DNA from: a bacterium
GTDB lineage: Bacteria > Patescibacteriota > JABMPQ01 > JAUVWW01
Assembly (NCBI GenBank): GCA_030603885.1
Contig: JAUVWW010000003.1
Location: forward strand, 13,223 to 77,222
Length of the DNA stretch: 64,000 nt
Direction: 5' to 3'
Shown: positions 3,948 through 35,586 of the stretch, one piece after another
How the letters are laid out: every line of letters starts with the position of its first letter
How positions within the stretch are numbered: the first letter of the stretch is position 1
Made by a program: the position numbers and the translations under genes
The notes under the pieces: model-generated
The model's database searches: none
Told to the model about the DNA's origin: nothing
What the model saw: only the letters and a program-made list of their open reading frames with translations

Positions 3948-5321
3948 TTATTTATAAAAATTTCCTATGAGAGCGTTATATTCATCAGCAAGGTTGTTAT
4001 ATTTATCTACTTCTCTGTCGTGTTCATTTGCTTTAGATTCGTATTTGTTATAAGTCGATTCATATTGAGAATATAATCGTCTGTATTCATTATATAAAGC
4101 ATAATCTCTTAAAATCTCGTGTCTTCTATAAACTGCTTTGGCTTGTTGGTCGTAATAATTAACACTATTTTCTAATTGATTTGCTTCACTTCCTAATAAG
4201 CTTATAATTCCCTCCAATTTGTTCAGTTCTTTTTCTAATGTCTCTATCCTCTGTATTGTCTGAGCTGTTTTAATTATTTCATGGTAGCTATTGCCTTCTG
4301 TTATCTCATAGACTTCAGCATTCTTCAATTCTGACCAAGTCAATTCACTCTCTTTTTCTTCATTGAATAGTTCTATCGTTGTCCTCGTTTTAGGTTTTCC
4401 AGCACGAATATCCATTTGAGGTATTTCGCCTATTCTAAACCCTAAATCTGTAACCTCAGCAAAGCAATAATCAGAATTATAGGAAGAATACTCTTTGGGG
4501 CATTCAACCGCTGGCGCTATATGACCAATTTCATCTTCCGTTACAGCCTCATAGTCAAACAAGGCAACTCCGTAACCTAATTCTTTTATAAGTGATGCGG
4601 CCAAAAAAGTTTTACCGCTACAAACTCCCTTATTATCATACAAAACTTCATATGGATATCTTGGATATAAATCTTCAAGATTATTAGGATATATAATTAA
4701 TTCAAGTTTATCTTCATCATAAGGAATTGATTGAACAAAAGCCACGGTTAATTCTAATAATTCATCACCCCTTAATCCGTTTTTTGAAGCTATCGCTTTA
4801 ATATCTGATGCAATTTTAGAAATTGTATTATCTTCTTCTGCTTCCTCTAAAAACCCTTTAAGACAACTCTCATAATCACCCCCTTCTTGCCAACAATGTT
4901 TATCCGGGCTTGAGTTATAATAATCATAAGCTGTTTTGTATAATGTTTCTTCCACCGTGTAAGGTAAGCCTCCGTATTCCCATTGGAAAGTTACTGTTTT
5001 TGGCTCTTCTAATGGTGGAAATTTCTTTGTTTGAGTAGTATAATCACGCTCTGTGTACCAAGTATCTGCGTACCAAATAACAAAGATTATACCTATTACA
5101 AATAGAGACGTGTAAACGAAACGTTTACCCTTCCAACGCCACCATAATTTTAAGCTTCTCCAATGTCTGAGTTTATAACTTTTTTGTTTCTCTCTTTTCT
5201 GTCTACCAGTAGGCCTACTGAAATATTCTATTCTATATTTTTCAGGGACTTCAGGCGGATATTTATTGTTCCCTTTTTCATTATCCATATTCTTTCTTAA
5301 ATTTTTTCTTTCATAAATCAT
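3948..5321 (-). CDS. Membrane-anchored protein with a possible transglutaminase-like Cys-His core (GVCSGKTFLAASLIKELGYG...GHIAP) and a C-terminal coiled coil
   Basis: ORF 457 aa. It has a basic N-terminus and one TM helix. The Cys and His residues are spaced about 30 aa apart as in transglutaminase-like peptidases. This is a motif-level call only. Confidence 0.4.
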   Translation of the reverse strand: MIYERKNLRKNMDNEKGNNKYPPEVPEKYRIEYFSRPTGRQKREKQKSYKLRHWRSLKLWWRWKGKRFVYTSLFVIGIIFVIWYADTWYTERDYTTQTKKFPPLEEPKTVTFQWEYGGLPYTVEETLYKTAYDYYNSSPDKHCWQEGGDYESCLKGFLEEAEEDNTISKIASDIKAIASKNGLRGDELLELTVAFVQSIPYDEDKLELIIYPNNLEDLYPRYPYEVLYDNKGVCSGKTFLAASLIKELGYGVALFDYEAVTEDEIGHIAPAVECPKEYSSYNSDYCFAEVTDLGFRIGEIPQMDIRAGKPKTRTTIELFNEEKESELTWSELKNAEVYEITEGNSYHEIIKTAQTIQRIETLEKELNKLEGIISLLGSEANQLENSVNYYDQQAKAVYRRHEILRDYALYNEYRRLYSQYESTYNKYESKANEHDREVDKYNNLADEYNALIGNFYK

Positions 5322-16900: not shown

Positions 16901-17869
16901 ATGCCAAATACAAGCAAAGCTAAGATCATTGCCTTGGTTATTATGGCTATTACTGTTTTATTAGTAGCCTTTTTTATTGTCAAAGAGAATTTTGCTTTGT
17001 CTCAAGAAGGAAAGATTATCTCCCGAGCTTCTATTACTGACACAGACGGAGATGGGCTGACAGATGAAGAGGAAACCAAGTATAAAACCAATCCAAATCA
17101 GGCAGATTCAGATGGAGATGGAGTATCTGATTTAGAAGAGATCCAAAAAGGAACAGATCCCAACAAAGCAGATCAAATTCCTGGGGACGTGGATTCCGAC
17201 GGAGATGGCTTGACTAATGACGAAGAAGCCAAATATGGCACAGATCCTTTTAATCCAGACACAGATCAAGATGGCTATTCAGATGGTCAAGAGATAGTTT
17301 CAGGCTATGATCCTTTAACTCCTTGTGAAGGATGTGAAGGAAGAGTGGCAGGAGACTGGTCTAAGACTTTGGAAGGTCTAACAGAGGGCTTGGAGGCTGA
17401 TAAAATTTTAGAAAATGTAGATACATCTCCAGTTGAATTACCAGATATCTCAGATTCAGAGTTAAATATTACAGATGAGACTGGAAAGAAAGCAATGAGA
17501 AAATATTTTGATGAGGTAGAAAAGGTGTTAAAAAAAGATCTGCCCTTTGTAATGGGCAAGGAAAATATTCAGGCTTTTGCATCTGATGCTCTATTAATTC
17601 TCCAGAATAAAGAGAAAATAGATGAAATTACAAAACAACTAGAGACTACCTACCAAGATATAAAAAATATTCCTACTCCAAAGGAATGTAAGACAATTAA
17701 AACAAAAACATTACAAATTTTAAAAGTATCTCCTCAAATATTGAATACAATATACGATTGTCAACAAAGAGGCGATTATTTAAGTTATTTATCTCAACTT
17801 TATAAGATTCAATCCCTTTCTCTCGTCGGAGGGGATTTAGCTAAGGAGATAACCAATATCCAAAAATAA
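16901..17869 (+). CDS. Membrane-anchored protein with thrombospondin-type-3-like Ca-binding repeats ([48 protein letters not shown])
   Basis: ORF 322 aa with an N-terminal TM helix and four D-x-D-x-D-G repeats. Confidence 0.55.
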
Positions 17870-18731: not shown

Positions 18732-21107
18732 ATGCTAAGAAAATCTAAAAATTTCCTTATTTACTTTCTGGTTTTTAGTTTTGTTTTATTATCTCAACCA
18801 TGGTTAGTTAATAAAGCAAGTGCTTATACAAGGCCCACTCTCAATTTAAACATCCCTTCTCAGCCGAAGATTGGTGATGAGATGAAAATTAGGGTCATGG
18901 CCATGTATTTTGACGAAAAAGAGCCTACAAAGATAGGGTATAGTTATTATATCAAGGGCTTTCCAGGTGGGGGCCTTGTAGCTGGGTCTCAAGATAGATT
19001 TGTTAAAGATGGGGTATTGGGCAATCAATATGGCAATTTAAAATATATAGATTATGAACCAACTGCTGGGCATAAGATTAGATATTGGTATAGGACTACT
19101 TTAGATTCTACAGGAACAGAGAAAGAGCCATGGGAGAATAATGATAAGGATATAAATAAAAATAAAATACATGATGATTGGGAAAGAAGATATTTTAGAA
19201 TTGACCCTACAACTGAAGCAGTAAATCCAGATGATGATCCAGATGGGGACAGTTATAATTGGCTGGATAGAATGAAAGCTGCTCATAGGGTATGTATAAC
19301 TTTCAGCATGCCTGAGGCAACCCATTGTGCACTTTACGGATTTCCAGGTGAAGTTTGCTTGCACAAGGCACTATTTGATGCTGGAGTTCCTCAAACAGCA
19401 GATGTTGGTCCTGCAGGAATTATTAATCCTACCTCTCCTAGATATGGAATAGGTACAGACAATAAGTTTACTAACTATGAAGAATATGTTTTTGGAACTA
19501 ATCCTAAATTAGCAGATACAGATGGAGACAGTATATTGGACGAAGCCGATGTAATTGGTATGGGTCAAGATGAGTGTAAGTTTAAGGTTACTCCTGCCTT
19601 AGGTCCGGTAGGAAGAAAGTTTCCTGTGGAGATTAAAACTCTAGGCTATGTTCCAAGAGGTAGTGGTGAATTTCATTGGTGGCGGGGAGGGTCGCCTGGG
19701 TGGGGTGGTATCTTTGATTGGTCTTGTCTTCTTCTACTTTCTAAAACAAATACTGTTGAAATTTCCCCTGGCCCTCCTTTAGATATTATTTTGCAGTCAG
19801 AGCCAGAAGTTCCTACTCCAGCTAATAATGGAACAGATTATCCTGAAGTTAAGATAGAAGCTTCAGTAACAGGAATGGAATATAAACAGAGATTGTATTT
19901 TAAATGGTATATTGGGGCCAAGGTAATAGATGAGGGATACGGAAAGAATATATTTACATTTCCAGTAACTGCTGATCCTTGCAGTGTTGTTCCGGTTACC
20001 TGTGATGTTTCAGAGGAGTTTCCTGGGGGGGTAGTTAGATCCGGATCTGCTAGTTTGGATATGGGAATTGGATATGATATTCCAGAAGATGCCTTATCAG
20101 CTAGCCTGCTTTACAATACTTCCCAAGACCAAGACGAAGATGGCTGTATAGACGGGGATATGAATTGTAATTTCATATTAGATGGTGGCGAAACTTGGAC
20201 TACAACAGATCCATTTTATGATCAGATAAACGATGACCTATTGAATAACGGTCGTAATATAAGACAAAATGATGTAATAACAATACATACCGAATTTTCC
20301 AGTACTAATGGATTATGTACTTTGCCAGATTCAGACGAGCCAAAAGATTTTGTCTATGTCTGGTATCTAGATGGAAAAGAGCAGACAGACCAATCAGGTG
20401 CAGGAGATAAACCTAATCCTCAAATCGAAGGAGGAACTTTTCAAGATTTTAAATTTACTGTTACCAAGCCTCCTGGAAGTAAACATCTAGTAAAATTAAA
20501 ACTAATCAGAATCTCTGATGGTTTTGAATATGGTCAGTTTGGAGAGAAAGTATTTACTGTTCAAACCCCAACAGCTTCTATAGAATCAGGTACAGCTTTT
20601 GGTTGCGATGAAGAGGAGACAGGTTTGTGTAGAGTAATATTAGAGCCTGATGAAACACGAACAGTAGATTTTAAAGCTGTTCTTGAATATTTCCAGCCTA
20701 CCTATGCCGAAACTTTCCATTATACCTGGACTTTTGATGGAGAAGTAGTTAAAGAGAAAGATACTACTGAAGCTGAGGATATTCTCACTTATGAATTTAC
20801 TCATCCAGGAGGAGTAGAAGAGGAGCGTACAGAGAGCCACACTGTAGTAATAACTGTAGATAATTATATAGACTTAGATGAGATAGCAGATGAATCAGCT
20901 ATAAATACTTATGCTGTGGAGCTAGTGCTAAAGCCGGGTGGAGCAGCAGTTGCCCGGGGTCCCCTCCGAACTTTCTTTGCTCAGGCAGGCCAGGCTGTAT
21001 CAAGCCATTTCAAAAATATCTTTAACATTGTTTTCACTATAGGTGTCATTGGCTTTATTGTCTTTGTAGTTATGGCGGCAGGACAGATTAAGAGAAAAAA
21101 AGAATAG
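18732..21107 (+). CDS. Large secreted surface protein with C-terminal TM anchor
   Basis: ORF 791 aa with a signal peptide, an Asp-rich Ca-binding-like motif (DTDGDSILDE) and a C-terminal hydrophobic helix plus KRKKE. Confidence 0.5.
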   Translation: MLRKSKNFLIYFLVFSFVLLSQPWLVNKASAYTRPTLNLNIPSQPKIGDEMKIRVMAMYFDEKEPTKIGYSYYIKGFPGGGLVAGSQDRFVKDGVLGNQYGNLKYIDYEPTAGHKIRYWYRTTLDSTGTEKEPWENNDKDINKNKIHDDWERRYFRIDPTTEAVNPDDDPDGDSYNWLDRMKAAHRVCITFSMPEATHCALYGFPGEVCLHKALFDAGVPQTADVGPAGIINPTSPRYGIGTDNKFTNYEEYVFGTNPKLADTDGDSILDEADVIGMGQDECKFKVTPALGPVGRKFPVEIKTLGYVPRGSGEFHWWRGGSPGWGGIFDWSCLLLLSKTNTVEISPGPPLDIILQSEPEVPTPANNGTDYPEVKIEASVTGMEYKQRLYFKWYIGAKVIDEGYGKNIFTFPVTADPCSVVPVTCDVSEEFPGGVVRSGSASLDMGIGYDIPEDALSASLLYNTSQDQDEDGCIDGDMNCNFILDGGETWTTTDPFYDQINDDLLNNGRNIRQNDVITIHTEFSSTNGLCTLPDSDEPKDFVYVWYLDGKEQTDQSGAGDKPNPQIEGGTFQDFKFTVTKPPGSKHLVKLKLIRISDGFEYGQFGEKVFTVQTPTASIESGTAFGCDEEETGLCRVILEPDETRTVDFKAVLEYFQPTYAETFHYTWTFDGEVVKEKDTTEAEDILTYEFTHPGGVEEERTESHTVVITVDNYIDLDEIADESAINTYAVELVLKPGGAAVARGPLRTFFAQAGQAVSSHFKNIFNIVFTIGVIGFIVFVVMAAGQIKRKKE

Positions 21108-21144
21108 AGTCTCCAAATTTACAAATTTCAATTAAAAATTATTA

Positions 21145-23757
21145 ATGATATTTGATTCTATCCAGCAAAAATTGATTCAGGTTTATTTTAAAGGAAAATC
21201 TTTTATTTTTTCCCATAAAAAAGTCGTAATCGCCGGAGTCTTGCTTTTGGCTCTGGTTTTTGTTCTTTTGCCTCATTTTTCACAAGCAGCAAAAGCACCA
21301 ACTTCAATAGAAGTACCAGGGGGAAACTTTCTAGCCTGGGTATTGTATATGGCTAAGATGTTAATATATTGGTTAACATTACTTGCAGCCAGAATTTTAG
21401 CTTGGATGCTAAGAGGAACTCAGGGTTTTCTAGATAGTGAATTAGTTACTGTGGGCTGGTCTGTAGTTAGAGATACAGCCAATATGTTCTTTATTTTAAT
21501 TTTGTTGGTTATTGCCTTTGGCACTATCTTACGTCTGGAAGCCCTTGGCCTTACCTACAAAAGACTTCTTACTCCCATGATCGTTGCTATTTTATTAGTT
21601 AATTTTTCTCGGACCATTTGCACTACCATTGTTAATTTTTGTGATACTTTAATGGAGGGATTTATAGGAGGAATATCAGGCGGAAAAATAGGGACTTTAC
21701 CCGATGCCCTTGTTAGTGGTATGCAGTTAGATAAGATGTGGGAAACAGCTCCCGTAAAGATTAGCTTGTGGAAAATTTTCACTGGATTTCAGACGTTAGA
21801 TGTGATTTTAGCCCAAGCTTTTGATAGTGCTTATGCTAGCGTAGCTTTAATAGCCATGTTAGCAGTCTGTATCTTTTTAATGATCCGAGTTTTGGCTTTG
21901 AGCCTTTTAACCATTGCTGCTCCTCTGGTATTTGTCATGCAAATAATACCAGCTACCAAAACCTATGTAGCTAAGTGGTGGCCTACTTTTATTAAGTATG
22001 CTCTCTATGGACCCATAGCTGCTTTTTGTGTTGCCCTGGCTGGAAAAATGAGTGAGCTTCTTAGAAAAGGTGGGATAGGGCTTTTGGGATGGGAAAAACT
22101 TTCAAATGTGGAACAGCAAGCGCTAGAAAAAGCGGGTTTTGCTTCTGCCATTAGCACTCCCAGAGCCCTTGTAGAAGGCCTTTTTGTCTGTGGAATTCTC
22201 TTTGCCGCGGTTTTGGCTGCCCAACAGCTTGGTCTACACGGCGCAGGAGCCATTGTTAAACTTGCCAGAGGAGGAGCAGGAGTTTTGTTTACGGGAGCCA
22301 AAGCTGGAGGAAGATTTGTTGGTCGAAGAGTATCCATGGGTCTAGGTGCAGGTAAGGAGGGCCTTGTAGGGAAAGTTATGACTCGGGTGGGACTAGGGAA
22401 ATATGCAGATTTTCCCCGTTTTCTCTCTCCTAGGGTGCTAAAAGAAGGTTTAAAAACAAGAATAGAGGAGGCTGAAAAAATGTCCTACGAGGGAGCTTAT
22501 GGTTGGGTCACGGATAGAGTAAACGCTTTATCTACTAAAACTCTTGGTAGTTTAGGAATGGCAAGAATAATGAAAAGAGATTACGAGTCCATAGATTTAG
22601 CAAAGGCTCGAAAAGAGAGAAGAGCTTATTTTCAAGAAGTCAATCCCCATGGTGGCCATCCTTATCTAAGAGACGAATTCTGGAAAGCTGTAGAGGCTAA
22701 AGATATACCGGGATTACAGGAGCTCTTGCTTGAACTAGGCCCACGTCAAAATTGGAATGAGCTTTTAAGGGAATCAGCCCAAGCACCTAAAACCGAAAAA
22801 ATTGGAAGACACATGTTCTCTAAAAAGTATAAGATCTTATTTGGAGAGAAATATTTAGCAAGTGAGAAAATTCAGAAAGAAATGGATCGAACCGGGATGT
22901 TAAAGTTTGATAATGCATCCAGGATAGCCATGCTTGAGAGTCTCTTTGGCAAAGAAAGGGGTATTAAGCTTGGAGCAGAGATATCCGAGGAAGGAAAAAT
23001 TTCAGGAGATCAATCCCGGTCTGAAATGAGAGATTTTCATGCTGGAAAGGAGATCTGGACAGGAACAGTGCAAGTTAATGAGGCTAAAAGAGACGCTGAG
23101 ACGTTATCCGAAGCTGCTTTGAGAGATAAGGCGTTAAAGGCTGGATTTACAAAGACTGATATAGAGGGAGCCTCAAAGCTAAGATTGGCTTACCTAGTTA
23201 AAGCTGTTGAGGTGGGAGCAGACAGAGATGAGATGATCCAGATAGCTCTTGCGCCAGACGAGAATCTCGATGAGATTTATAAGCAGAAAAGAGACACAGA
23301 AAAGTTAAGGGATGTTGTTGATCAAGAGCTAGAGGCTAAGATTATGGATCGGGTTAGAGGACATAGGGCAGCCATAGAACATGCCAAACAGTCTTCCCGA
23401 AAGAAGCTGGATCAATCCAGATTTACCCATGTTATTGTAGGCTATAAGTCAGATGGATCAGAGATGGTCTTTGATATGACTACCAATGCTAGAGATACGG
23501 CAGAGGGTGGAAACTATGTAGCGGGTGATATACATGAAGTAGATAGGTTTACTTCCGCCGTAACTATAGAAAACCAAGTCAAACCTAATGTAAAGATAAT
23601 AAGAAAATATACACTTAAGAAAACAAAAAAGAGAGATCCAGAAGCAGCTAAGCGAAGTGAAGCCTACTATGCACAAGTAGATTATGCTCATGAGCATCCA
23701 GAAGGAGAGCTGAAAAAATTAGCAAGAGCCATACTGGAAGAGGAAAAAGAAAAGTAA
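21145..23757 (+). CDS. VirB6/TrbL-like polytopic membrane protein with long C-terminal hydrophilic domain
   Basis: ORF 870 aa with a signal peptide, then about six TM helices in the first ~400 aa with VirB6-like topology. The C-terminal ~450 aa are charged and helical. Confidence 0.5.
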   Translation: MIFDSIQQKLIQVYFKGKSFIFSHKKVVIAGVLLLALVFVLLPHFSQAAKAPTSIEVPGGNFLAWVLYMAKMLIYWLTLLAARILAWMLRGTQGFLDSELVTVGWSVVRDTANMFFILILLVIAFGTILRLEALGLTYKRLLTPMIVAILLVNFSRTICTTIVNFCDTLMEGFIGGISGGKIGTLPDALVSGMQLDKMWETAPVKISLWKIFTGFQTLDVILAQAFDSAYASVALIAMLAVCIFLMIRVLALSLLTIAAPLVFVMQIIPATKTYVAKWWPTFIKYALYGPIAAFCVALAGKMSELLRKGGIGLLGWEKLSNVEQQALEKAGFASAISTPRALVEGLFVCGILFAAVLAAQQLGLHGAGAIVKLARGGAGVLFTGAKAGGRFVGRRVSMGLGAGKEGLVGKVMTRVGLGKYADFPRFLSPRVLKEGLKTRIEEAEKMSYEGAYGWVTDRVNALSTKTLGSLGMARIMKRDYESIDLAKARKERRAYFQEVNPHGGHPYLRDEFWKAVEAKDIPGLQELLLELGPRQNWNELLRESAQAPKTEKIGRHMFSKKYKILFGEKYLASEKIQKEMDRTGMLKFDNASRIAMLESLFGKERGIKLGAEISEEGKISGDQSRSEMRDFHAGKEIWTGTVQVNEAKRDAETLSEAALRDKALKAGFTKTDIEGASKLRLAYLVKAVEVGADRDEMIQIALAPDENLDEIYKQKRDTEKLRDVVDQELEAKIMDRVRGHRAAIEHAKQSSRKKLDQSRFTHVIVGYKSDGSEMVFDMTTNARDTAEGGNYVAGDIHEVDRFTSAVTIENQVKPNVKIIRKYTLKKTKKRDPEAAKRSEAYYAQVDYAHEHPEGELKKLARAILEEEKEK

Positions 23758-23847
23758 CCTTTTATGCCTGAATATCTAACAAATATGCAAGACTAGTAGA
23801 CTAAAAAGAGATAAAAAGATGAAAACATATTCTAAGTTACCTGACAA

Positions 23848-25428
23848 ATGATTCTCAATTTAGTAAAAAAAGAGCTAGACAAACCTGAGACTTTCGAAAA
23901 GATTTTGAGAAAAATCAGAGTTTGGCATTATGACGGTTATAGAAGGTATACAGATGAGATAATGGTCTTTATTGTTGAGCTTGGAAAGAGACTGCCAGAC
24001 CTGAAGAGGACCAATCCAGACCTAGCTTCAAAATATGAGACAATCTCAATCAATCTCAAATGGGAGATGTTAGAGAATCTTCCAGATGATGAAGTGGTCG
24101 AGATGTTTGAGAAATATTATCTTACAGGTCTTAAGAAAGGGACTAACTTGGTGGATAGATTAAGGATAAAAATGCTGATTATATCAATATGGCTGAGAGA
24201 TGATTATCTCAAAGAAATAAGGCAAGTTTTAGAGAAAAATACCCAGAGATTAGGGACCAAGACTATTATTGTTCCTGGTCAGGTGAGACCCCAACCTCCA
24301 ACAATAGGAAATTGGCTTCTAGATTACAATGATGCCTTAGGAGTAGGAAAGCATAGCGATATAGCTATTTCTAACTATTTTGTCACATCTGCTAATGTTG
24401 CTGGCCTAACTACCGAAGAAAAAGAACTCCTGAGAAAAACCATTCTCTTTTATGAACTTCTAAAATTAGGTGTTAGAGATCCAGGCTCAATGAGTGGTTA
24501 CTCTTTGAATTTTTATGGCATCAGGGGTACTGAGGCTATACCTGTCGAATCTGGTATGGGTCATTTTGTTACTTATCCAGCATTGTCAAGAAGATTTGCC
24601 GGAGAACATCCCATTCCAGGCTCTCCTCGGCTAGGAGTACTTGCAGAAAGAAAAAGAAAAAGAGAAGTAGCCAAGGTAAAAGAACACCTAGCCAAGATAG
24701 CAAGGAAGCCCCTTGCTCCACCAATTACCCCTCCACATATTAAGGCGCCTAAGCCACCATCAGAAATAGAAAAAGAGATTGAAGCTAAAAGAAAAGCAGA
24801 AGAAGAGAGGATTGCTCGTTTAGAGAGAGAAATGGAGCCAAAAGTGGCTCCGCCACCTAAAGTCAAAATACCCAAACCTCTCGAAGTTCCTAAAACACCT
24901 CCTAGGCCAGAGGTTGCTCCTCTTAAGATTAAGCCTGCTCCGGAATTTAAGCCTCCTGAGGCACCAAAGCCTAAACCACTCGCTCCTCCAGAGATTAAGC
25001 CTGCTCCTCCTTTGCCTCCAAAACCAGCAAGGCCACCTCGAATCGAGGCTGCTCCTCCACCCCCACCTAAGCCCGCTCCTCCGCTAGAGCCAAAAGCTCC
25101 TCCCAAAATTGAATCAGTTGATGATATTAAAAAACTTGGCTTGGATGATTTTAGGAGCTATCGAGAAGTACCTCTTGATTCTGCACGGGTTATTACAGAA
25201 AAAATAAATTCTTTACTAGCTGAAGCTTCTCCTTTAGATAAAATAAAAGCTCTGGCCTTTTGGAAAGAAAGTAATCTTTATAAACTTTATATTGAGATGG
25301 GAAGAGAATCCATGGCTCAAGGTATCTCTGTCAAAGAGCTAGCTGAAAAAAGAAGAGCTGAGGGAAAACCATTTTTGTCCCATGAGGAGTTTGAGGCGAT
25401 AGTGGAGATATCAGGAAGCATTGGATAA
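23848..25428 (+). CDS. Hypothetical protein with central Pro-rich repeat region (PPxKP/APPxxKP)
   Basis: ORF 526 aa. The PxP repeat block runs from about 24700 to 25110. Confidence 0.45.
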   Translation: MILNLVKKELDKPETFEKILRKIRVWHYDGYRRYTDEIMVFIVELGKRLPDLKRTNPDLASKYETISINLKWEMLENLPDDEVVEMFEKYYLTGLKKGTNLVDRLRIKMLIISIWLRDDYLKEIRQVLEKNTQRLGTKTIIVPGQVRPQPPTIGNWLLDYNDALGVGKHSDIAISNYFVTSANVAGLTTEEKELLRKTILFYELLKLGVRDPGSMSGYSLNFYGIRGTEAIPVESGMGHFVTYPALSRRFAGEHPIPGSPRLGVLAERKRKREVAKVKEHLAKIARKPLAPPITPPHIKAPKPPSEIEKEIEAKRKAEEERIARLEREMEPKVAPPPKVKIPKPLEVPKTPPRPEVAPLKIKPAPEFKPPEAPKPKPLAPPEIKPAPPLPPKPARPPRIEAAPPPPPKPAPPLEPKAPPKIESVDDIKKLGLDDFRSYREVPLDSARVITEKINSLLAEASPLDKIKALAFWKESNLYKLYIEMGRESMAQGISVKELAEKRRAEGKPFLSHEEFEAIVEISGSIG

Positions 25429-25952: not shown

Positions 25953-26771
25953 ATGGAGCAAGAAGTTAAAAAACCAAAAGGACCTTTTGAAGGGATCATT
26001 GACAAGATCCTTAGTTTTTTACCTACCCCGAAAAAACCTCCTGGGGCCAAGGGTCCTGAAAAGGAAGCTAAGCCAGTTGAGGCGGCAGAGACCTTGAAAT
26101 CTTCTCGAGCTAAAGCAAGAGTAGCTGCCTCAGTTCAAAGATATCTTCCTTTTAAGGAAATAAGAGATGGCTGTGTGGTGCTTAAAAATAACGCTCTTAG
26201 AGCCATTCTAATGGTCTCCTCTATTAATTTTGCCTTGATGTCTGAAGAAGAGCAAAAAGCTAAGCTTTATGCCTACCAAGAATTTTTAAATGCTCTAGAA
26301 TTTCCAGTTCAGTTTGTCATTCAATCCAAAATGCTAAATATTTCAGGATATTTGGAAAAGGTGGAGGAGATAGCCAGGGTTCAGGAGAATGAACTTTTGC
26401 GTATTCAAACTTCAGAATATAAAGAATTTGTAAAAAGCCTGGTTGAGCTAGCTAATATTACTTCTAATCATTATTATATAGTGGTTCCTTATTCGGGTCC
26501 CGGAGTAGAAGTTAAAAAAGGAATAGCCGATAGAGTAAAAAGTATGATTCAACCAGCCCAAAAGATTGCCGAAGAAAAGCTTAGTTTTGAAAAATCAAAA
26601 GAAGCCCTGGATTTAAGGGTATCTCAGGTGATATCTGGTCTATCTGGCATGGGTCTTAGATGTGCTCAACTTTCCACCCAAGAAATAGTTGAGCTTTTGT
26701 ATACAGTTTATAATCCAGATACAGCCAAGAATCAGATTTTGGCTGATTTGGAAAGATTAGAAGTAGCATAA
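25953..26771 (+). CDS. VirB4/TrbE/PrgJ-family ATPase, N-terminal segment, separated from the remainder by one in-frame TAA
   Basis: LPFKEIRDGCVVLKNNALRAILMVSSINFALMSEEEQ matches the conserved N-terminal region of Gram-positive VirB4-like proteins. It is in the same frame as 26799-28664. Confidence 0.6.
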   Translation: MEQEVKKPKGPFEGIIDKILSFLPTPKKPPGAKGPEKEAKPVEAAETLKSSRAKARVAASVQRYLPFKEIRDGCVVLKNNALRAILMVSSINFALMSEEEQKAKLYAYQEFLNALEFPVQFVIQSKMLNISGYLEKVEEIARVQENELLRIQTSEYKEFVKSLVELANITSNHYYIVVPYSGPGVEVKKGIADRVKSMIQPAQKIAEEKLSFEKSKEALDLRVSQVISGLSGMGLRCAQLSTQEIVELLYTVYNPDTAKNQILADLERLEVA

Positions 26772-26798
26772 AAAGGTCTCGACCTTTATCTGAATTTA

Positions 26799-28664
26799 TT
26801 GTTCAAAACCATGGTCGAAAAACTCGAAACAAAACAAGTTCCCATAGGTAAAAAAGATCTTGAAAGTCTCACTCTAGAAGAGAGAGAGGCTATTCTTAAA
26901 GCCGAAGAAATCTATCGTAAGGGCCTGGTTTCTGTTCAGGATATCATTGCTCCTTCTGCTTTAAAAATAAATCCTGATCATATTATTATTGGTACCAAGT
27001 ATGCTCGTACTATATACCTAGTTACTTATCCTCGGTATCTAATGACTGGTTGGTTTGCTCCCATAATTAACTTAAATGTGGCTTTGGACATTGCCCTGTT
27101 TATTGAGCCTATGTCTTCAGAGACAGTGTTGAAGACTCTTCGTTCTAAAGCAGCTCAAGTTCAGGCAGGCATAGCTGGCAATATAGAAAAGGGAATGGTC
27201 AGAGATCCTATTTTGGATGCAGCTTTAAAAGATGTAGAGACTTTGAGAGATAAGCTAACTGCCGGAACAGAGAGATTTTTTCATTTCGGACTTTACATCA
27301 CTATCTATGCTAAAAATACAGAAGAATTAGAAAAGACCACCACTGAAATAGAAACTATGTTTGGGCATAAGTTAATTATGTCCCGGAGAGCCGTATTTCA
27401 AGGGGAGCAGGGTTTTAATTCCACTTTACCTTTTGGAATGGATGATCTTGGTATAACCCTGCCCATGAATACAGGACCTTTATCTACTTCATTCCCGTTT
27501 GTCTCAAGTGAACTTACTTCAGATAAAGGAATTCTTTATGGCATAAATCGGCATAACAACTCCCTAATTTTATTTGATCGATTTTCTCTTCCCAATGCAA
27601 ACTCAGTTGTTTTTGCTACTTCAGGAGCTGGAAAGAGTTATGCTGTGAAACTTGAAGTTTTAAGATCTATGATGTTTGGTACTGATGTCATTATTGTCGA
27701 CCCAGAAAATGAATATCAGCATTTATCTGAAGCTGTGGGTGGAACTTTCTTGAAAATTTCTTTAGGAGCCAATTATATTATCAATCCTTTTGATCTTCCT
27801 AAACCTGTGGCTGGAGAGTCTACTGAAGATATTATCAGATCTGCTGTTATTAGCTTAAAGGGATTAATGAAGGTTATTTTAGGCCGAATGACTAAAGAAG
27901 AAGAGGCTTTGGTAGACAAAGCTCTACTTGAGACTTATGCTGCCAGAGACATTACTCCTGAATCAGATTTAGCTAAAATTACTCCTCCAACTATGGAAGA
28001 TTTTGAGAGCATTCTCTCTGGTATGGAAGGAGCAGAAGATCTTGCTCTAAGAATTCAGAAATATACCAAAGGAACCTTTGCAGGGCTTTTTAATAAACCT
28101 ACCAATGTAGAGCTGAAACAGCAGTTGGTAGTCTTTTCTATTCGAGACCTTGAGGATGAACTTCGTCCAGTAGCTATGTACATTATCTTGAATTATATCT
28201 GGAATATAGTAAGATCAGAATTGAAGAAAAGAATTTTAGTTGTTGATGAAGCTTGGTGGATGATGCAATATGAAGATTCGGCTCGGTTCCTATTTGGATT
28301 AGTTAAAAGAGCAAGAAAATATTATCTGGGAGTGACAGTTATTTCTCAAGATGTAAATGACTTCTTGACTTCTGATATGGGCAAAGCAGTAGTGACTAAC
28401 TCTGCCATGCAAATATTACTTAGACAGTCTCCAGCAGCTATTGATCTTTTAAGAAAAACATTTTATCTGACTGAGGAAGAAAAATATCTACTTTTGGAAT
28501 CCAATGTAGGGGAGGGAATATTCTTTGCCGGAGCCAAGCATGTGGCCATAAAGATAGTTGCCTCTTATTCTGAAGATCAGATTATTACCACTGACCCAAG
28601 ACAGCTTTTAGAGATAGAAAAGGCAAAGGAGGAATTTGCCGAGGCAGAGAAACAAGCAGGTTAA
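26799..28664 (+). CDS. VirB4-like T4SS ATPase (Walker A ATSGAGKS, Walker B ILVVDEAWWMM)
   Basis: ORF 621 aa (TTG start in the track; ATG at 26811). It has the conserved IIGTKYARTIYLVTYPRY region and P-loop NTPase motifs. Confidence 0.85.
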   Translation: MFKTMVEKLETKQVPIGKKDLESLTLEEREAILKAEEIYRKGLVSVQDIIAPSALKINPDHIIIGTKYARTIYLVTYPRYLMTGWFAPIINLNVALDIALFIEPMSSETVLKTLRSKAAQVQAGIAGNIEKGMVRDPILDAALKDVETLRDKLTAGTERFFHFGLYITIYAKNTEELEKTTTEIETMFGHKLIMSRRAVFQGEQGFNSTLPFGMDDLGITLPMNTGPLSTSFPFVSSELTSDKGILYGINRHNNSLILFDRFSLPNANSVVFATSGAGKSYAVKLEVLRSMMFGTDVIIVDPENEYQHLSEAVGGTFLKISLGANYIINPFDLPKPVAGESTEDIIRSAVISLKGLMKVILGRMTKEEEALVDKALLETYAARDITPESDLAKITPPTMEDFESILSGMEGAEDLALRIQKYTKGTFAGLFNKPTNVELKQQLVVFSIRDLEDELRPVAMYIILNYIWNIVRSELKKRILVVDEAWWMMQYEDSARFLFGLVKRARKYYLGVTVISQDVNDFLTSDMGKAVVTNSAMQILLRQSPAAIDLLRKTFYLTEEEKYLLLESNVGEGIFFAGAKHVAIKIVASYSEDQIITTDPRQLLEIEKAKEEFAEAEKQAG

Positions 28665-29939: not shown

Positions 29940-30581
29940 ATGTTCAATAAATTAAAATCCATTTTTCTTTTTCTTGTCTGCCTAGCTTTATTTGTTTTAC
30001 CTCTATTTACTCTTGCCCAAGAAGGATTTTTTGGTGAGGCAGAAACAGCTACTGGAATGATTAGAAATATTTATTGGTTTGGAGTAGTCATAGTTGGCTT
30101 TGCGGCTGTGGTAGCCATTGTCATTGCTGGCATAATGTATATGCAGTCCTATGGAGATCCGCAGAAAATAACCCAGGCCAAACAGCTTTTAGGAGGTGCT
30201 CTTATTGGTATGGTCCTACTTCTTTTTTCCTACACCATTCTCCGAACCATAAATCCTGCCTTGGTAAGACTAAGGGAGCCGATGTTGGAGGTGGAGTTGG
30301 AAAAGCCTGAATGTCTTCCAAACGGGACTTCGTGTAATGTACATGCTGAATGTTGTAGTGGAAGATGTGATCCGCAAACAAGACTGTGTATAACTCCTGG
30401 GGGTGGAACCGCTGGAAAATGTAATGAAGAAGACCCTACAAAAAAACATGAGTGTTGTAAAAATAATGATACTGGCGAATTTTGGGAAGCATGGCTAGGG
30501 GTTAATCAATACTGTCACCATGTTTGTCCTGAAACCCCCGGGGGTTGGGCTGGCGTCGGTTCTTCTGCTTGTGGATTTTAA
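29940..30581 (+). CDS. VirB2/TrbC-topology pilin-like protein (signal peptide plus two TM helices) fused to a C-terminal Cys-rich domain (14 Cys)
   Basis: ORF 213 aa. It is a paralog of 31941-32951, sharing the FFGEAE motif after the signal peptide, a two-TM hairpin and P.L....P.LEVEL. Confidence 0.5.
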   Translation: MFNKLKSIFLFLVCLALFVLPLFTLAQEGFFGEAETATGMIRNIYWFGVVIVGFAAVVAIVIAGIMYMQSYGDPQKITQAKQLLGGALIGMVLLLFSYTILRTINPALVRLREPMLEVELEKPECLPNGTSCNVHAECCSGRCDPQTRLCITPGGGTAGKCNEEDPTKKHECCKNNDTGEFWEAWLGVNQYCHHVCPETPGGWAGVGSSACGF

Positions 30582-31940: not shown

Positions 31941-32951
31941 ATGCGTCTCAAAATAATGACAATCTCAATTTCGATTATTCTAGCAAGTGTTTGTGCTACA
32001 AGCATAGCTCATGCTCAGGCAGTTCCCTTTTTCGGAGAGGCAGAAAATATCTGTGAGCTAATAAAAAACATTGTTTATTTTGGAGTAGGTTTAGCTGGTG
32101 TTGCTGCTATGCTGGTGATCATGATTGGAGGGATTATTTACATGGTTTCTTTTGGTTCGGAGGAAAGAAAGAAAACTGGCATGGACCTTATGGGAGGGGC
32201 AGTCAAAGGCTTACTTTTAGCTCTTTTTTCCTGGACCATTTTTTATATTATTAGTCCCTATCTTTTAAGATGTAAAGTGCCTGTGTTGGAAGTAGAGCTA
32301 CCAGAATGGTATGGAGAAAGAGAAAGAGGGATAGCAAAACGCCTTCCTTGTCAAGGTAAGGAAACCTTTGACCGGGCTGAATGTAGCACAAAATGTGGCG
32401 TAGAGCCAGGCGAAGCAAGGCCAGGCATGAATTGTATCCCAGAAAAGAATTCTTGTGGTCAAGAAGGAGATAAATACTGTTGCCTAGATTTAAAAATCGA
32501 TCATATCACTGTTCATTGGACAGCTGGACATCCTAGTCATATCACTAATTTCTGTACAAATGGGTATCTTGGATATCACTATGTTGTCGATTCACAGGGA
32601 ACTGTTCATCAAATGGCAAAGGATTGGGAAATCCCCCCCTGGCATACTAAAGGTAGAAATACTCGGGGCATTGGTATTACTGCCGCAGGTATGGCTGGAG
32701 CCGGCACAACTTGCTATGTGGAGAGTGGTGATATCGGTGGATGTCCTAATTGTCCAAACTGTCTTACCCAGGCTCAGATAAATGCAATGAAAGCCAAAAT
32801 AGCAGAACTAGCAAATAAATATAATATTCCTTCTACTACTGCCGGTATAATCACACACGGAGAAGCTGCTATAGAAGATGGATACTATCCAAATAGATGG
32901 GAATACACTGTAAAAAATAAGGTTAACTATGGACCCGAATTTCGACAATAA
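31941..32951 (+). CDS. VirB2-topology pilin-like protein fused to a Cys-rich region and a C-terminal Amidase_2/PGRP-type N-acetylmuramoyl-L-alanine amidase domain
   Basis: ORF 336 aa. HITVHWTAGH...YHYVVDSQGTVHQ...WHTKGRNTRGIGI matches the Amidase_2 core. The N-terminus is paralogous to 29940-30581. Confidence 0.6.
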   Translation: MRLKIMTISISIILASVCATSIAHAQAVPFFGEAENICELIKNIVYFGVGLAGVAAMLVIMIGGIIYMVSFGSEERKKTGMDLMGGAVKGLLLALFSWTIFYIISPYLLRCKVPVLEVELPEWYGERERGIAKRLPCQGKETFDRAECSTKCGVEPGEARPGMNCIPEKNSCGQEGDKYCCLDLKIDHITVHWTAGHPSHITNFCTNGYLGYHYVVDSQGTVHQMAKDWEIPPWHTKGRNTRGIGITAAGMAGAGTTCYVESGDIGGCPNCPNCLTQAQINAMKAKIAELANKYNIPSTTAGIITHGEAAIEDGYYPNRWEYTVKNKVNYGPEFRQ

Positions 32952-34221: not shown

Positions 34222-35586
34222 ATGCCTAAATCAAGAACAATCTATGTTTGTTCAAACTGTGGAGATGAGTTTTTGAAATGGGCTGGAAAATGTGAGGCTT
34301 GTGGAGAGTGGAACACTTTAAAAGAATTGAGAATTACCAAATCTGAAGGAGGAAGCGGAAAAAGAGAAGCTAGCCAGCCAGTGAGTTTCGATCAGATTCA
34401 GCAGGAAGGTTTTTCTAGATTAATGACTGGAATTTCTGAGTTTGATCGGACAGTAGGAGGAGGAATTGTTCCAGGATCTGTTATTCTTCTTGGTGGAGAT
34501 CCGGGGATAGGGAAATCAACACTCATTTTGCAAGCCTGTGACAAGATTACACAAATGCTCTCGGATAACAGTCTACTTTACGTATCAGGCGAAGAATCAG
34601 CAGAGCAGATTAAAATGAGAGCAGATAGGTTGGGAATTAAGGCTCAAAATTTACAGTTTCTAGCTGAGACAAATATCGATTCTATAGTGGCTACCATAGA
34701 TAAGACTAAACCTGGGCTAGTGATTATTGATTCTATCCAAACTATGTGCCAAGAAGATATTCCTTCTTCGGCAGGAAGTGTTGCTCAAGTCAGAGCTTGT
34801 GCCTTAAAACTCATTGAAATAGCCAAGGCTAATCATATTCCCATAGTCCTTATTGGTCATGTGACTAAAGGAGGAGAGGTGGCTGGTCCAAAAACCCTAG
34901 AACATTTAGTAGATTGTGTGCTCTATTTAGAAGGTGAGCGATATGGAACCTATAGAATTCTAAGGGGAACAAAAAATAGATTTGGATCAACTGATGAAGC
35001 AGGAGTATTTGCCATGACTGAGACGGGGATGACTGAGGTCAAAAATCCCTCTGGTGTGTTTTTGCAGGAGCGAAAAAAAGGAGCAACTGGATCTTGTGTT
35101 ACGGCTACTCTTGAGGGAACAAGGACATTTCTGCTGGAGATTCAGGCTTTAACTTCCTTAACTAATTTTGGTTATCCCAGACGAACTGCTTCTGGTTTTG
35201 ACTTTAATAGGATGCAGTTGCTAATTGCTGTTTTACAAAAGAAGGCTCGACTTAAACTAGATAACCAAGATGTATATTTAAATATAGTTGGTGGCTTTAG
35301 AATTAGAGAGCCAGCTTGTGATTTAGCTTTCTGTCTAGCTATTGCCTCTTCTTATACAGGGAAAACAGTTGATCCTGAGATGGTGGTGATAGGTGAAGTA
35401 GGTCTAAATGGAGAGATCAGATCAGTGAGCAAACCAGAAAAGAGAATTTCTGAAGCAGCTAAGCTTGGATTTAAAAAAGTGTTAATACCAGCTTTTGTAG
35501 CTCAGACCTTTAGTTCTGACAACAAGGGTGTAAATGTTATCAAAATAAGAACAGTCCAGGAGGCGATTGAGAAGGCGTTAAAATAA
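34222..35586 (+). CDS. radA: DNA repair protein RadA/Sms
   Basis: ORF 454 aa with an N-terminal C4 zinc finger (CSNCG...CEACG), a RecA-like P-loop (GGDPGIGKST) and a Lon-like C-terminus. Confidence 0.9.
   Translation: MPKSRTIYVCSNCGDEFLKWAGKCEACGEWNTLKELRITKSEGGSGKREASQPVSFDQIQQEGFSRLMTGISEFDRTVGGGIVPGSVILLGGDPGIGKSTLILQACDKITQMLSDNSLLYVSGEESAEQIKMRADRLGIKAQNLQFLAETNIDSIVATIDKTKPGLVIIDSIQTMCQEDIPSSAGSVAQVRACALKLIEIAKANHIPIVLIGHVTKGGEVAGPKTLEHLVDCVLYLEGERYGTYRILRGTKNRFGSTDEAGVFAMTETGMTEVKNPSGVFLQERKKGATGSCVTATLEGTRTFLLEIQALTSLTNFGYPRRTASGFDFNRMQLLIAVLQKKARLKLDNQDVYLNIVGGFRIREPACDLAFCLAIASSYTGKTVDPEMVVIGEVGLNGEIRSVSKPEKRISEAAKLGFKKVLIPAFVAQTFSSDNKGVNVIKIRTVQEAIEKALK

Follow-up and report, generated by a model that had tools for sequence, protein, structure and literature searches.

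The 64,000-nucleotide (nt) window analysed here (contig JAUVWW010000003.1 of assembly GCA_030603885.1, positions 13,223 to 77,222) comes from a member of the Patescibacteria, and in it the ATPase VirB4 of a type IV secretion system (T4SS) is spread over two open reading frames (ORFs) that are parted by a single TAA. Is this a virB4 gene that has been broken, a gene whose stop codon is read through, an error in the deposited sequence, or simply a pair of genes? As an earlier note on this DNA had described, ORF1 (25953-26771) ends at the TAA and ORF2 continues in the same frame to 28664: the start of ORF1 and the two candidate starts of ORF2, at 26799 and 26811, are multiples of 3, and the 39-nt spacer holds no second stop in that frame. 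The same note had counted ten sense codons between the stop and ORF2, a figure that we correct to 9 up to the TTG at 26799 or 13 up to the ATG at 26811. Initiation at the TTG would give a product of 621 amino acids, while the form on record is the 617-residue product from the ATG.

Our answer is that this is, very probably, the normal two-gene VirB4 of Patescibacteria, a conserved set of prgI, a trsD-like gene and virB4, in which the TAA at 26769 is a real stop and the ATPase is initiated independently at ATG 26811. This reading stands on observed homology, collinearity, stop codon conservation, random frame relations, purifying selection and synteny. The two-gene arrangement as such is already known and published (PMC12102498).

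The two reading frames as parts of VirB4

ORF2 is a VirB4-family T4SS ATPase by its Walker A and B motifs, by the homology of its C-terminal domain, by a score above a curated cutoff and by its T4SS neighbourhood. Its Pfam matches are P-loop_TraG (E-value 1.5e-26), CagE_TrbE_VirB (1.4e-6) and also AAA_10. Of the NCBIfam models, NF045971 (conju_CD1110; cutoff 325 bits) is matched at 363.2 bits across positions 172-734 of its 752, and positions 285-893 of the 894-position VirB4_plasma model are covered as well; ORF2 remains under the cutoffs of TIGR00929 and of the remaining VirB4 models in that collection. Structural counterparts are found in the C-terminal domain of Thermoanaerobacter VirB4 (PDB 4AG5, E 1e-43) and in residues 445-735 of TrwK. 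Residues ~30-235 of the protein correspond to the second half of the N-terminal domain of VirB4, and the C-terminal, RecA-like ATPase domain takes up residues ~235-593. A complete VirB4 N-terminal domain is absent from this polypeptide, and the missing portion is encoded by ORF1.

In ORF1, the first 60 residues are a poorly conserved, disordered leader rich in lysine and proline. Among NCBIfam models, residues 58-181 align to positions 101-235 of VirB4_plasma, which represents the VirB4 of Mycoplasma integrative and conjugative elements (ICE; 3.3e-14), and residues 62-178 align to positions 2-119 of the CD1110 model (1.1e-5). All of the 36 family members that we sampled match both the VirB4_plasma and the TrsD models of NCBIfam, with a best TrsD E-value of 9e-10. 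In precomputed tables, the domain PF26593 ('TraC-like') is assigned to a protein identical to ORF1 (P0001) and to all listed homologues. An AlphaFold2 model of ORF1 was obtained with a predicted local distance difference test (pLDDT) score of 73.5, and its 13 best Foldseek matches in the PDB are all TrwK/VirB4.

The two proteins meet in a fused protein of 831 residues from a Bacillus mycoides plasmid. Its residues 21-213 are matched by the profile of the ORF1 family (hhalign 98.3%, E 2.5e-14) and its residues 234-818 by residues 33-598 of ORF2 (E 1e-71). Judged by these alignments, ORF1 and ORF2 correspond collinearly to the two halves of one full-length VirB4, the break falling in a short unconserved linker within the N-terminal domain. 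The assignments made in the earlier note, of the VirB4 N-terminal region to ORF1 and of the remainder with the Walker motifs to ORF2, are both borne out.

To place ORF1 among its relatives, we searched it against 5.8 billion proteins and obtained 1349 homologues, the lengths being read from the best 120. Every one of those 120 stands alone as a protein of 188-316 residues, most of them come from Patescibacteria, and some of the homologues carry the NCBI name 'TraC family protein'. The junction was then surveyed in 80 loci of species-representative Patescibacteria genomes, of which 78 enter the counts of stops and frames given below. The ORF1 homologue has a PrgI homologue directly upstream in 78 of the 80 loci, and directly downstream of it, on the same strand, an ATPase gene is found in 78 of the 80 as well (median length 630 residues). 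Published work (Quinonero-Coronel et al. 2025, Microb Genom, PMC12102498) describes TrsD as remotely homologous to the N-terminus of VirB4. Of all T4SS components it was the most abundant in Patescibacteria, where 2,272 homologues were counted and 1,664 of these were associated with virB4 (PMC12102498). It is without an assigned function there (PMC12102498), and in Ca. Southlakia epibionticum ML1 it is given among the essential genes (Wang et al. 2023, cited in PMC12102498).

A protein of this kind could also act on its own in an accessory role, such as that of a regulator or an assembly chaperone, instead of being bound stably to the ATPase as a subdomain detached from it. An accessory role would agree with the few loci in which 0.4-1.2 kb part the two genes, and with the Gracilibacteria, whose TrsD homologues are reported to be unassociated with virB4 (PMC12102498). 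Nevertheless we consider it quite improbable, for the protein is exactly collinear with the fused VirB4 up to a break in a short unconserved linker, and its gene is almost universally adjacent to that of the ATPase, with spacers of a few nucleotides. Moreover, the ATPase gene has no matching N-terminal region, so that the core alone would have an incomplete N-terminal domain.

The stop codon and the junction in related loci

Whether the TAA is an accident of this sequence or a gene boundary can be read from the related loci. In all 78 of them the ORF1 homologue terminates at the equivalent aligned position, through TAA in 56 cases, TAG in 13 and TGA in 9. The ATPase lies in frame 0, +1 or +2 relative to ORF1 in 24, 29 and 25 loci, respectively (chi-square p = 0.76, n = 78), and the gap between the two genes has a median of 9 nt, with 9 overlaps and a few large gaps. 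A lone in-frame stop between the two genes, as in the window, recurs in 17 of the 78 loci (22%), which is about the chance expectation for short spacers. By these counts, the shared reading frame in the window amounts to a 1-in-3 coincidence. A fused ORF1-ATPase form was present neither among the best 120 homologues nor in the 78 loci.

The closer relatives repeat this pattern. An independent metagenome contig of the Joint Genome Institute (JGI; sample 3300022538, locus L087), in which the ORF1 homologue (cluster mate P0121) is 97% identical, reads GCA TAA TAAATTTC ATG GCT GAA across the junction; it has the same TAA, here part of a double stop TAATAA, and an 8-nt spacer that leads into another frame. 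In L081, with an ORF1 77% identical, the TAA is followed by a spacer of 10 nt and the frame again differs from that of the window, and with L082 ending in TAG and L083 in TGA, all four of these relatives keep the stop. The ATG at 26811 is homologous to the starts of the ATPase genes in L087 and L081. Compared with L087, the spacer of the window contains 31 extra nucleotides, and as an indel of this length is not divisible by three, the spacer is non-coding.

Programmed readthrough or recoding of the TAA, yielding a VirB4 of about 900 residues, would be in line with the matching frames and with the 39-nt spacer devoid of a second stop. Immediately 3' of the TAA, at 26772-26787, there is in addition a hairpin, AAAGGT-CTCG-ACCTTT, with a perfect stem of 6 bp around the loop CTCG, which might be thought to stimulate such an event. 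Readthrough is still highly improbable, as the frame relation is random across the orthologues, the 97%- and 77%-identical relatives are both out of frame, the former with its double stop, and the spacer residues are without a counterpart in the fused homologue. The hairpin is absent in L087 and L081 and its fold has a z-score of -1.5, which is not significant; an Rfam scan returned tRNAs only, with no element at the hairpin, and neither the terminator nor the promoter scan made a call in the spacer. We therefore rejected the hairpin, on its z-score, the silent terminator scan and its absence in these two relatives, both as a stimulator of readthrough and as a terminator.

There is next to no probability left for a recent nonsense mutation, by which a continuous virB4 would have been broken through a point mutation to TAA and turned into a decaying pseudogene. 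The shared frame and the single stop between the ORFs are what such a mutation would leave, and fused single-chain homologues do exist elsewhere, as on the B. mycoides plasmid, but the stop is present in every relative examined and all three stop codons are used for it. Neither the lack of a fused form among these relatives nor the indel that marks the spacer as non-coding agrees with a recently broken gene, and there is no relaxation of selection. In a comparison with relatives that are 73-82% identical in protein (restricted for ORF2 to its N-terminal part), nonsynonymous differences (pN) amount to 0.11-0.16 per site and synonymous differences (pS) to 0.65-0.76, synonymous sites being near saturation. 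The resulting ratio of nonsynonymous to synonymous substitution rates (dN/dS) is ~0.10 for ORF1 and ~0.06 for the N-terminal part of ORF2, and such low values indicate that both compared regions are maintained by purifying selection. A sequencing or assembly error at 26769, conceivable in a metagenome-derived sequence, is equally negligible, given the identical GCA TAA in the independent JGI contig and a stop at this place in every orthologue.

Taken together, the stops in 78 of 78 loci, the random frames and the L087 junction dispose of sequencing error, recent nonsense mutation and conserved readthrough. All three had been listed in the earlier note as explanations of a VirB4 'interrupted' by a stop, a description that finds no support, the stop being a conserved gene boundary. 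The remaining option of that note, a genuine split gene, is the one that prevails by the test it had named, as two genes with the same junction between them are found consistently in the orthologous loci. It had also called for an inspection of the ribosome binding site of ORF2, suspected to be weak. The weakness is real, in that no Shine-Dalgarno sequence was found before ATG 26811, but it has no diagnostic value. A Shine-Dalgarno sequence is recognisable in only ~5 of 50 genes of the window, the leaders are mostly A/T-rich, and the median duplex energy with the anti-Shine-Dalgarno sequence is -0.3 kcal/mol. We thus rejected its absence as an argument against independent initiation of ORF2, as ~45 of the 50 genes are without one.

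Several points weigh against the two-gene reading. Taken singly, the Foldseek matches of ORF1 to TrwK are weak (probability 0.72-0.94, E 0.04-0.2, TM score ~0.34). Against the NCBIfam model of TrsD/TraD (NF041427), ORF1 reaches 26.6 bits where the cutoff is 200, with an E-value of 4.6e-6 and 42 residues aligned; it is a distant TrsD-like relative, outside the narrow curated TrsD/TraD subfamily. The PF26593 assignment was not reproduced by hmmscan against a local copy of Pfam-A at E <= 10, where the model is probably absent, and a scan of the same copy with ORF1 at permissive E-values gave nothing relevant. Searches of PDB chains with the ORF1 sequence and with the family profile returned chance coiled-coil matches only. 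The 39-nt spacer of the window exceeds the median of the family, and the association of the two proteins, discussed below, is something that we infer.

The survey also brought up some features of individual loci. In a Falkowbacteria locus (L027, ~4664-4859), a tandem array of CGCATAA begins at the trsD-like stop and fills a 192-nt spacer before virB4. In L031, L057, L079, L043, L059 and L067, mostly from Moraniibacteria, virB4 is extended at its N-terminus by a further ~150-300 residues; the ATPase ORFs in these loci reach 835-900 residues, and the separate trsD-like gene is retained. Many of the records with prgI, a trsD-like gene and virB4 (L002, L008, L013, L014 and others) are titled 'uncultured Gammaproteobacteria' or 'Bdellovibrionales', which are probably errors of taxonomic labelling in deposited metagenome-assembled genomes.

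A possible two-chain VirB4

The division of the VirB4 N-terminal domain between two genes raises the question of how the products work. With the collinearity in mind, one may propose that the TrsD-like protein and the VirB4 core would associate and so rebuild a complete VirB4 N-terminal domain. In the R388 system, VirB3 wraps around this domain (TrwK residues 15-400), through which VirB4 dimerises (PMC9259494). From a two-chain N-terminal domain and this role in R388, it follows by analogy that the TrsD-like subunit would help to organise the ATPase hexamer and to tether it to the PrgI/VirB3 platform in the membrane.

The very short spacers of the family, some of them overlaps, may allow coupled translation of the two genes. 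In the strain of the window, where the spacer is longer than the median, tight translational coupling is less likely. One may also speculate that, with the N-terminal module on a separate chain, its amount relative to the ATPase core could be adjusted by the cell, so that only some ATPase subunits would carry this module, which binds VirB3/PrgI, and that the in-frame TAA could here allow trace readthrough; the data support neither, and we regard both as unlikely. The idea of a ratio echoes the two non-equivalent positions of VirB4 in R388, one central and bound to VirB3, the other outside and bound to VirB8 tails.

For annotation, this means that neither 'disrupted virB4' nor 'pseudogene' is a proper label for the trsD-like/virB4 pair. 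Detectors of interrupted genes that rely on reading frame will raise the same false alarm, by chance, in about one in five Patescibacteria T4SS loci, as in the 17 counted here. The locus adds one more instance of the T4SS of epibiotic Patescibacteria, an essential system derived from conjugation, and it touches on the question of what the detached TrsD-like N-terminal module does.

The locus and its counterparts in known systems

The genome is low in GC (37%) and its homologues are nearly all from Patescibacteria. The neighbourhood is a monoderm-type T4SS cluster, MPF-FATA-like, whose features are collected in Table 1.

Table 1. Features of the trsD-like/virB4 locus, in positions of the window
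Feature	Position	Strand	Basis
prgI / VirB3-like small membrane protein, 154 residues	25461-25925	+	Pfam PrgI PF12666, E 3.3e-12
trsD-like / 'TraC-like' gene (ORF1), 272 residues	25953-26771	+	homologous to the first ~200 residues of single-chain VirB4, the first half of its N-terminal domain
TAA, termination codon of the trsD-like gene	26769-26771	+	stop at the equivalent aligned position in 78/78 orthologous loci
non-coding spacer, 39 nt	26772-26810	+	31 nt missing in the 97%-identical relative L087
virB4 ATPase core (ORF2), 617 residues from ATG 26811	26811-28664	+	Pfam, NCBIfam and PDB matches
Walker A, ATSGAGKS	27615-27638	+	translation
Walker B, ILVVDEAW	28233-28256	+	translation
T4SS pilin (VirB2/TrbC-like), in the same T4SS cluster	29940-30581	+	Pfam T4SS_pilin 1.1e-6, TrbC 3.7e-4
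second pilin-domain protein, fused to an Amidase_2 peptidoglycan hydrolase domain	31941-32951	+	T4SS_pilin 6.8e-7, Amidase_2 2.1e-15

The first of the two pilin-domain proteins has a Cys-rich C-terminal extension with a weak 'Conotoxin' match in Pfam, which may be a disulfide-rich surface tip. The second is a product of 336 residues, with the T4SS pilin/TrbC domain at residues 35-104 and Amidase_2 (N-acetylmuramoyl-L-alanine amidase) at residues 184-309. Directly upstream of prgI, at 18732-25428 on the + strand, there are three large ORFs of 791, 870 and 526 residues without a Pfam match, the last with a long low-complexity region rich in proline and lysine; they are likely to be lineage-specific T4SS or surface components. 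The cluster is flanked upstream by a protein with bacterial TSP3 calcium-binding repeats (16901-17869, + strand) and downstream by a RadA/Sms-like protein with a zinc ribbon, a KaiC/RecA-like ATPase domain and Lon_C (34222-35586, + strand).

Compared with the published TrsD-VirB4 pair of Patescibacteria, the window is alike in the standalone homologue of the VirB4 N-terminus, in gene order, and in the prgI/virB3 and nearby pilin genes. Nothing substantive differs; the window has merely a frame shared by chance and the longer spacer of 39 nt. A similar design is described for TrsD/TrsE of the staphylococcal plasmids pGO1 and pSK41 and for TraD/TraE of pIP501, in the pGO1 subclass of MPF-FATA, where a small relative of the VirB4 N-terminus likewise stands just upstream of a shortened VirB4-like ATPase. 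With TrsD of the pGO1 subclass, however, only the 42-residue stretch of ORF1 aligns.

Beyond the Patescibacteria, the same order of PrgI, an ORF1-like protein and a DUF87 ATPase is found on Geobacillus subterraneus pGspE55-1, with an equivalent split into 318 and then 636 residues, and on Clostridium perfringens pJFP838A, with 312 and then 641 residues. ORF1 is 31% identical to the 318-residue Geobacillus protein (E 1e-25). Unlike the locus in the window, these trios are plasmid-borne and belong to a different phylum, and in Geobacillus the two genes overlap by 14 nt. With the single-chain VirB4 proteins, namely the B. mycoides protein, the CD1110 family, the VirB4 of Mycoplasma ICE and TrwK of R388 (PDB 7O41/8RTB), ORF1 and ORF2 together are collinear with the whole, whereas the window has two polypeptides, parted within the N-terminal domain at an unconserved linker of ~20 residues. 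By the distribution of these trios, the split spans two phyla and looks old, and fused forms coexist with it.

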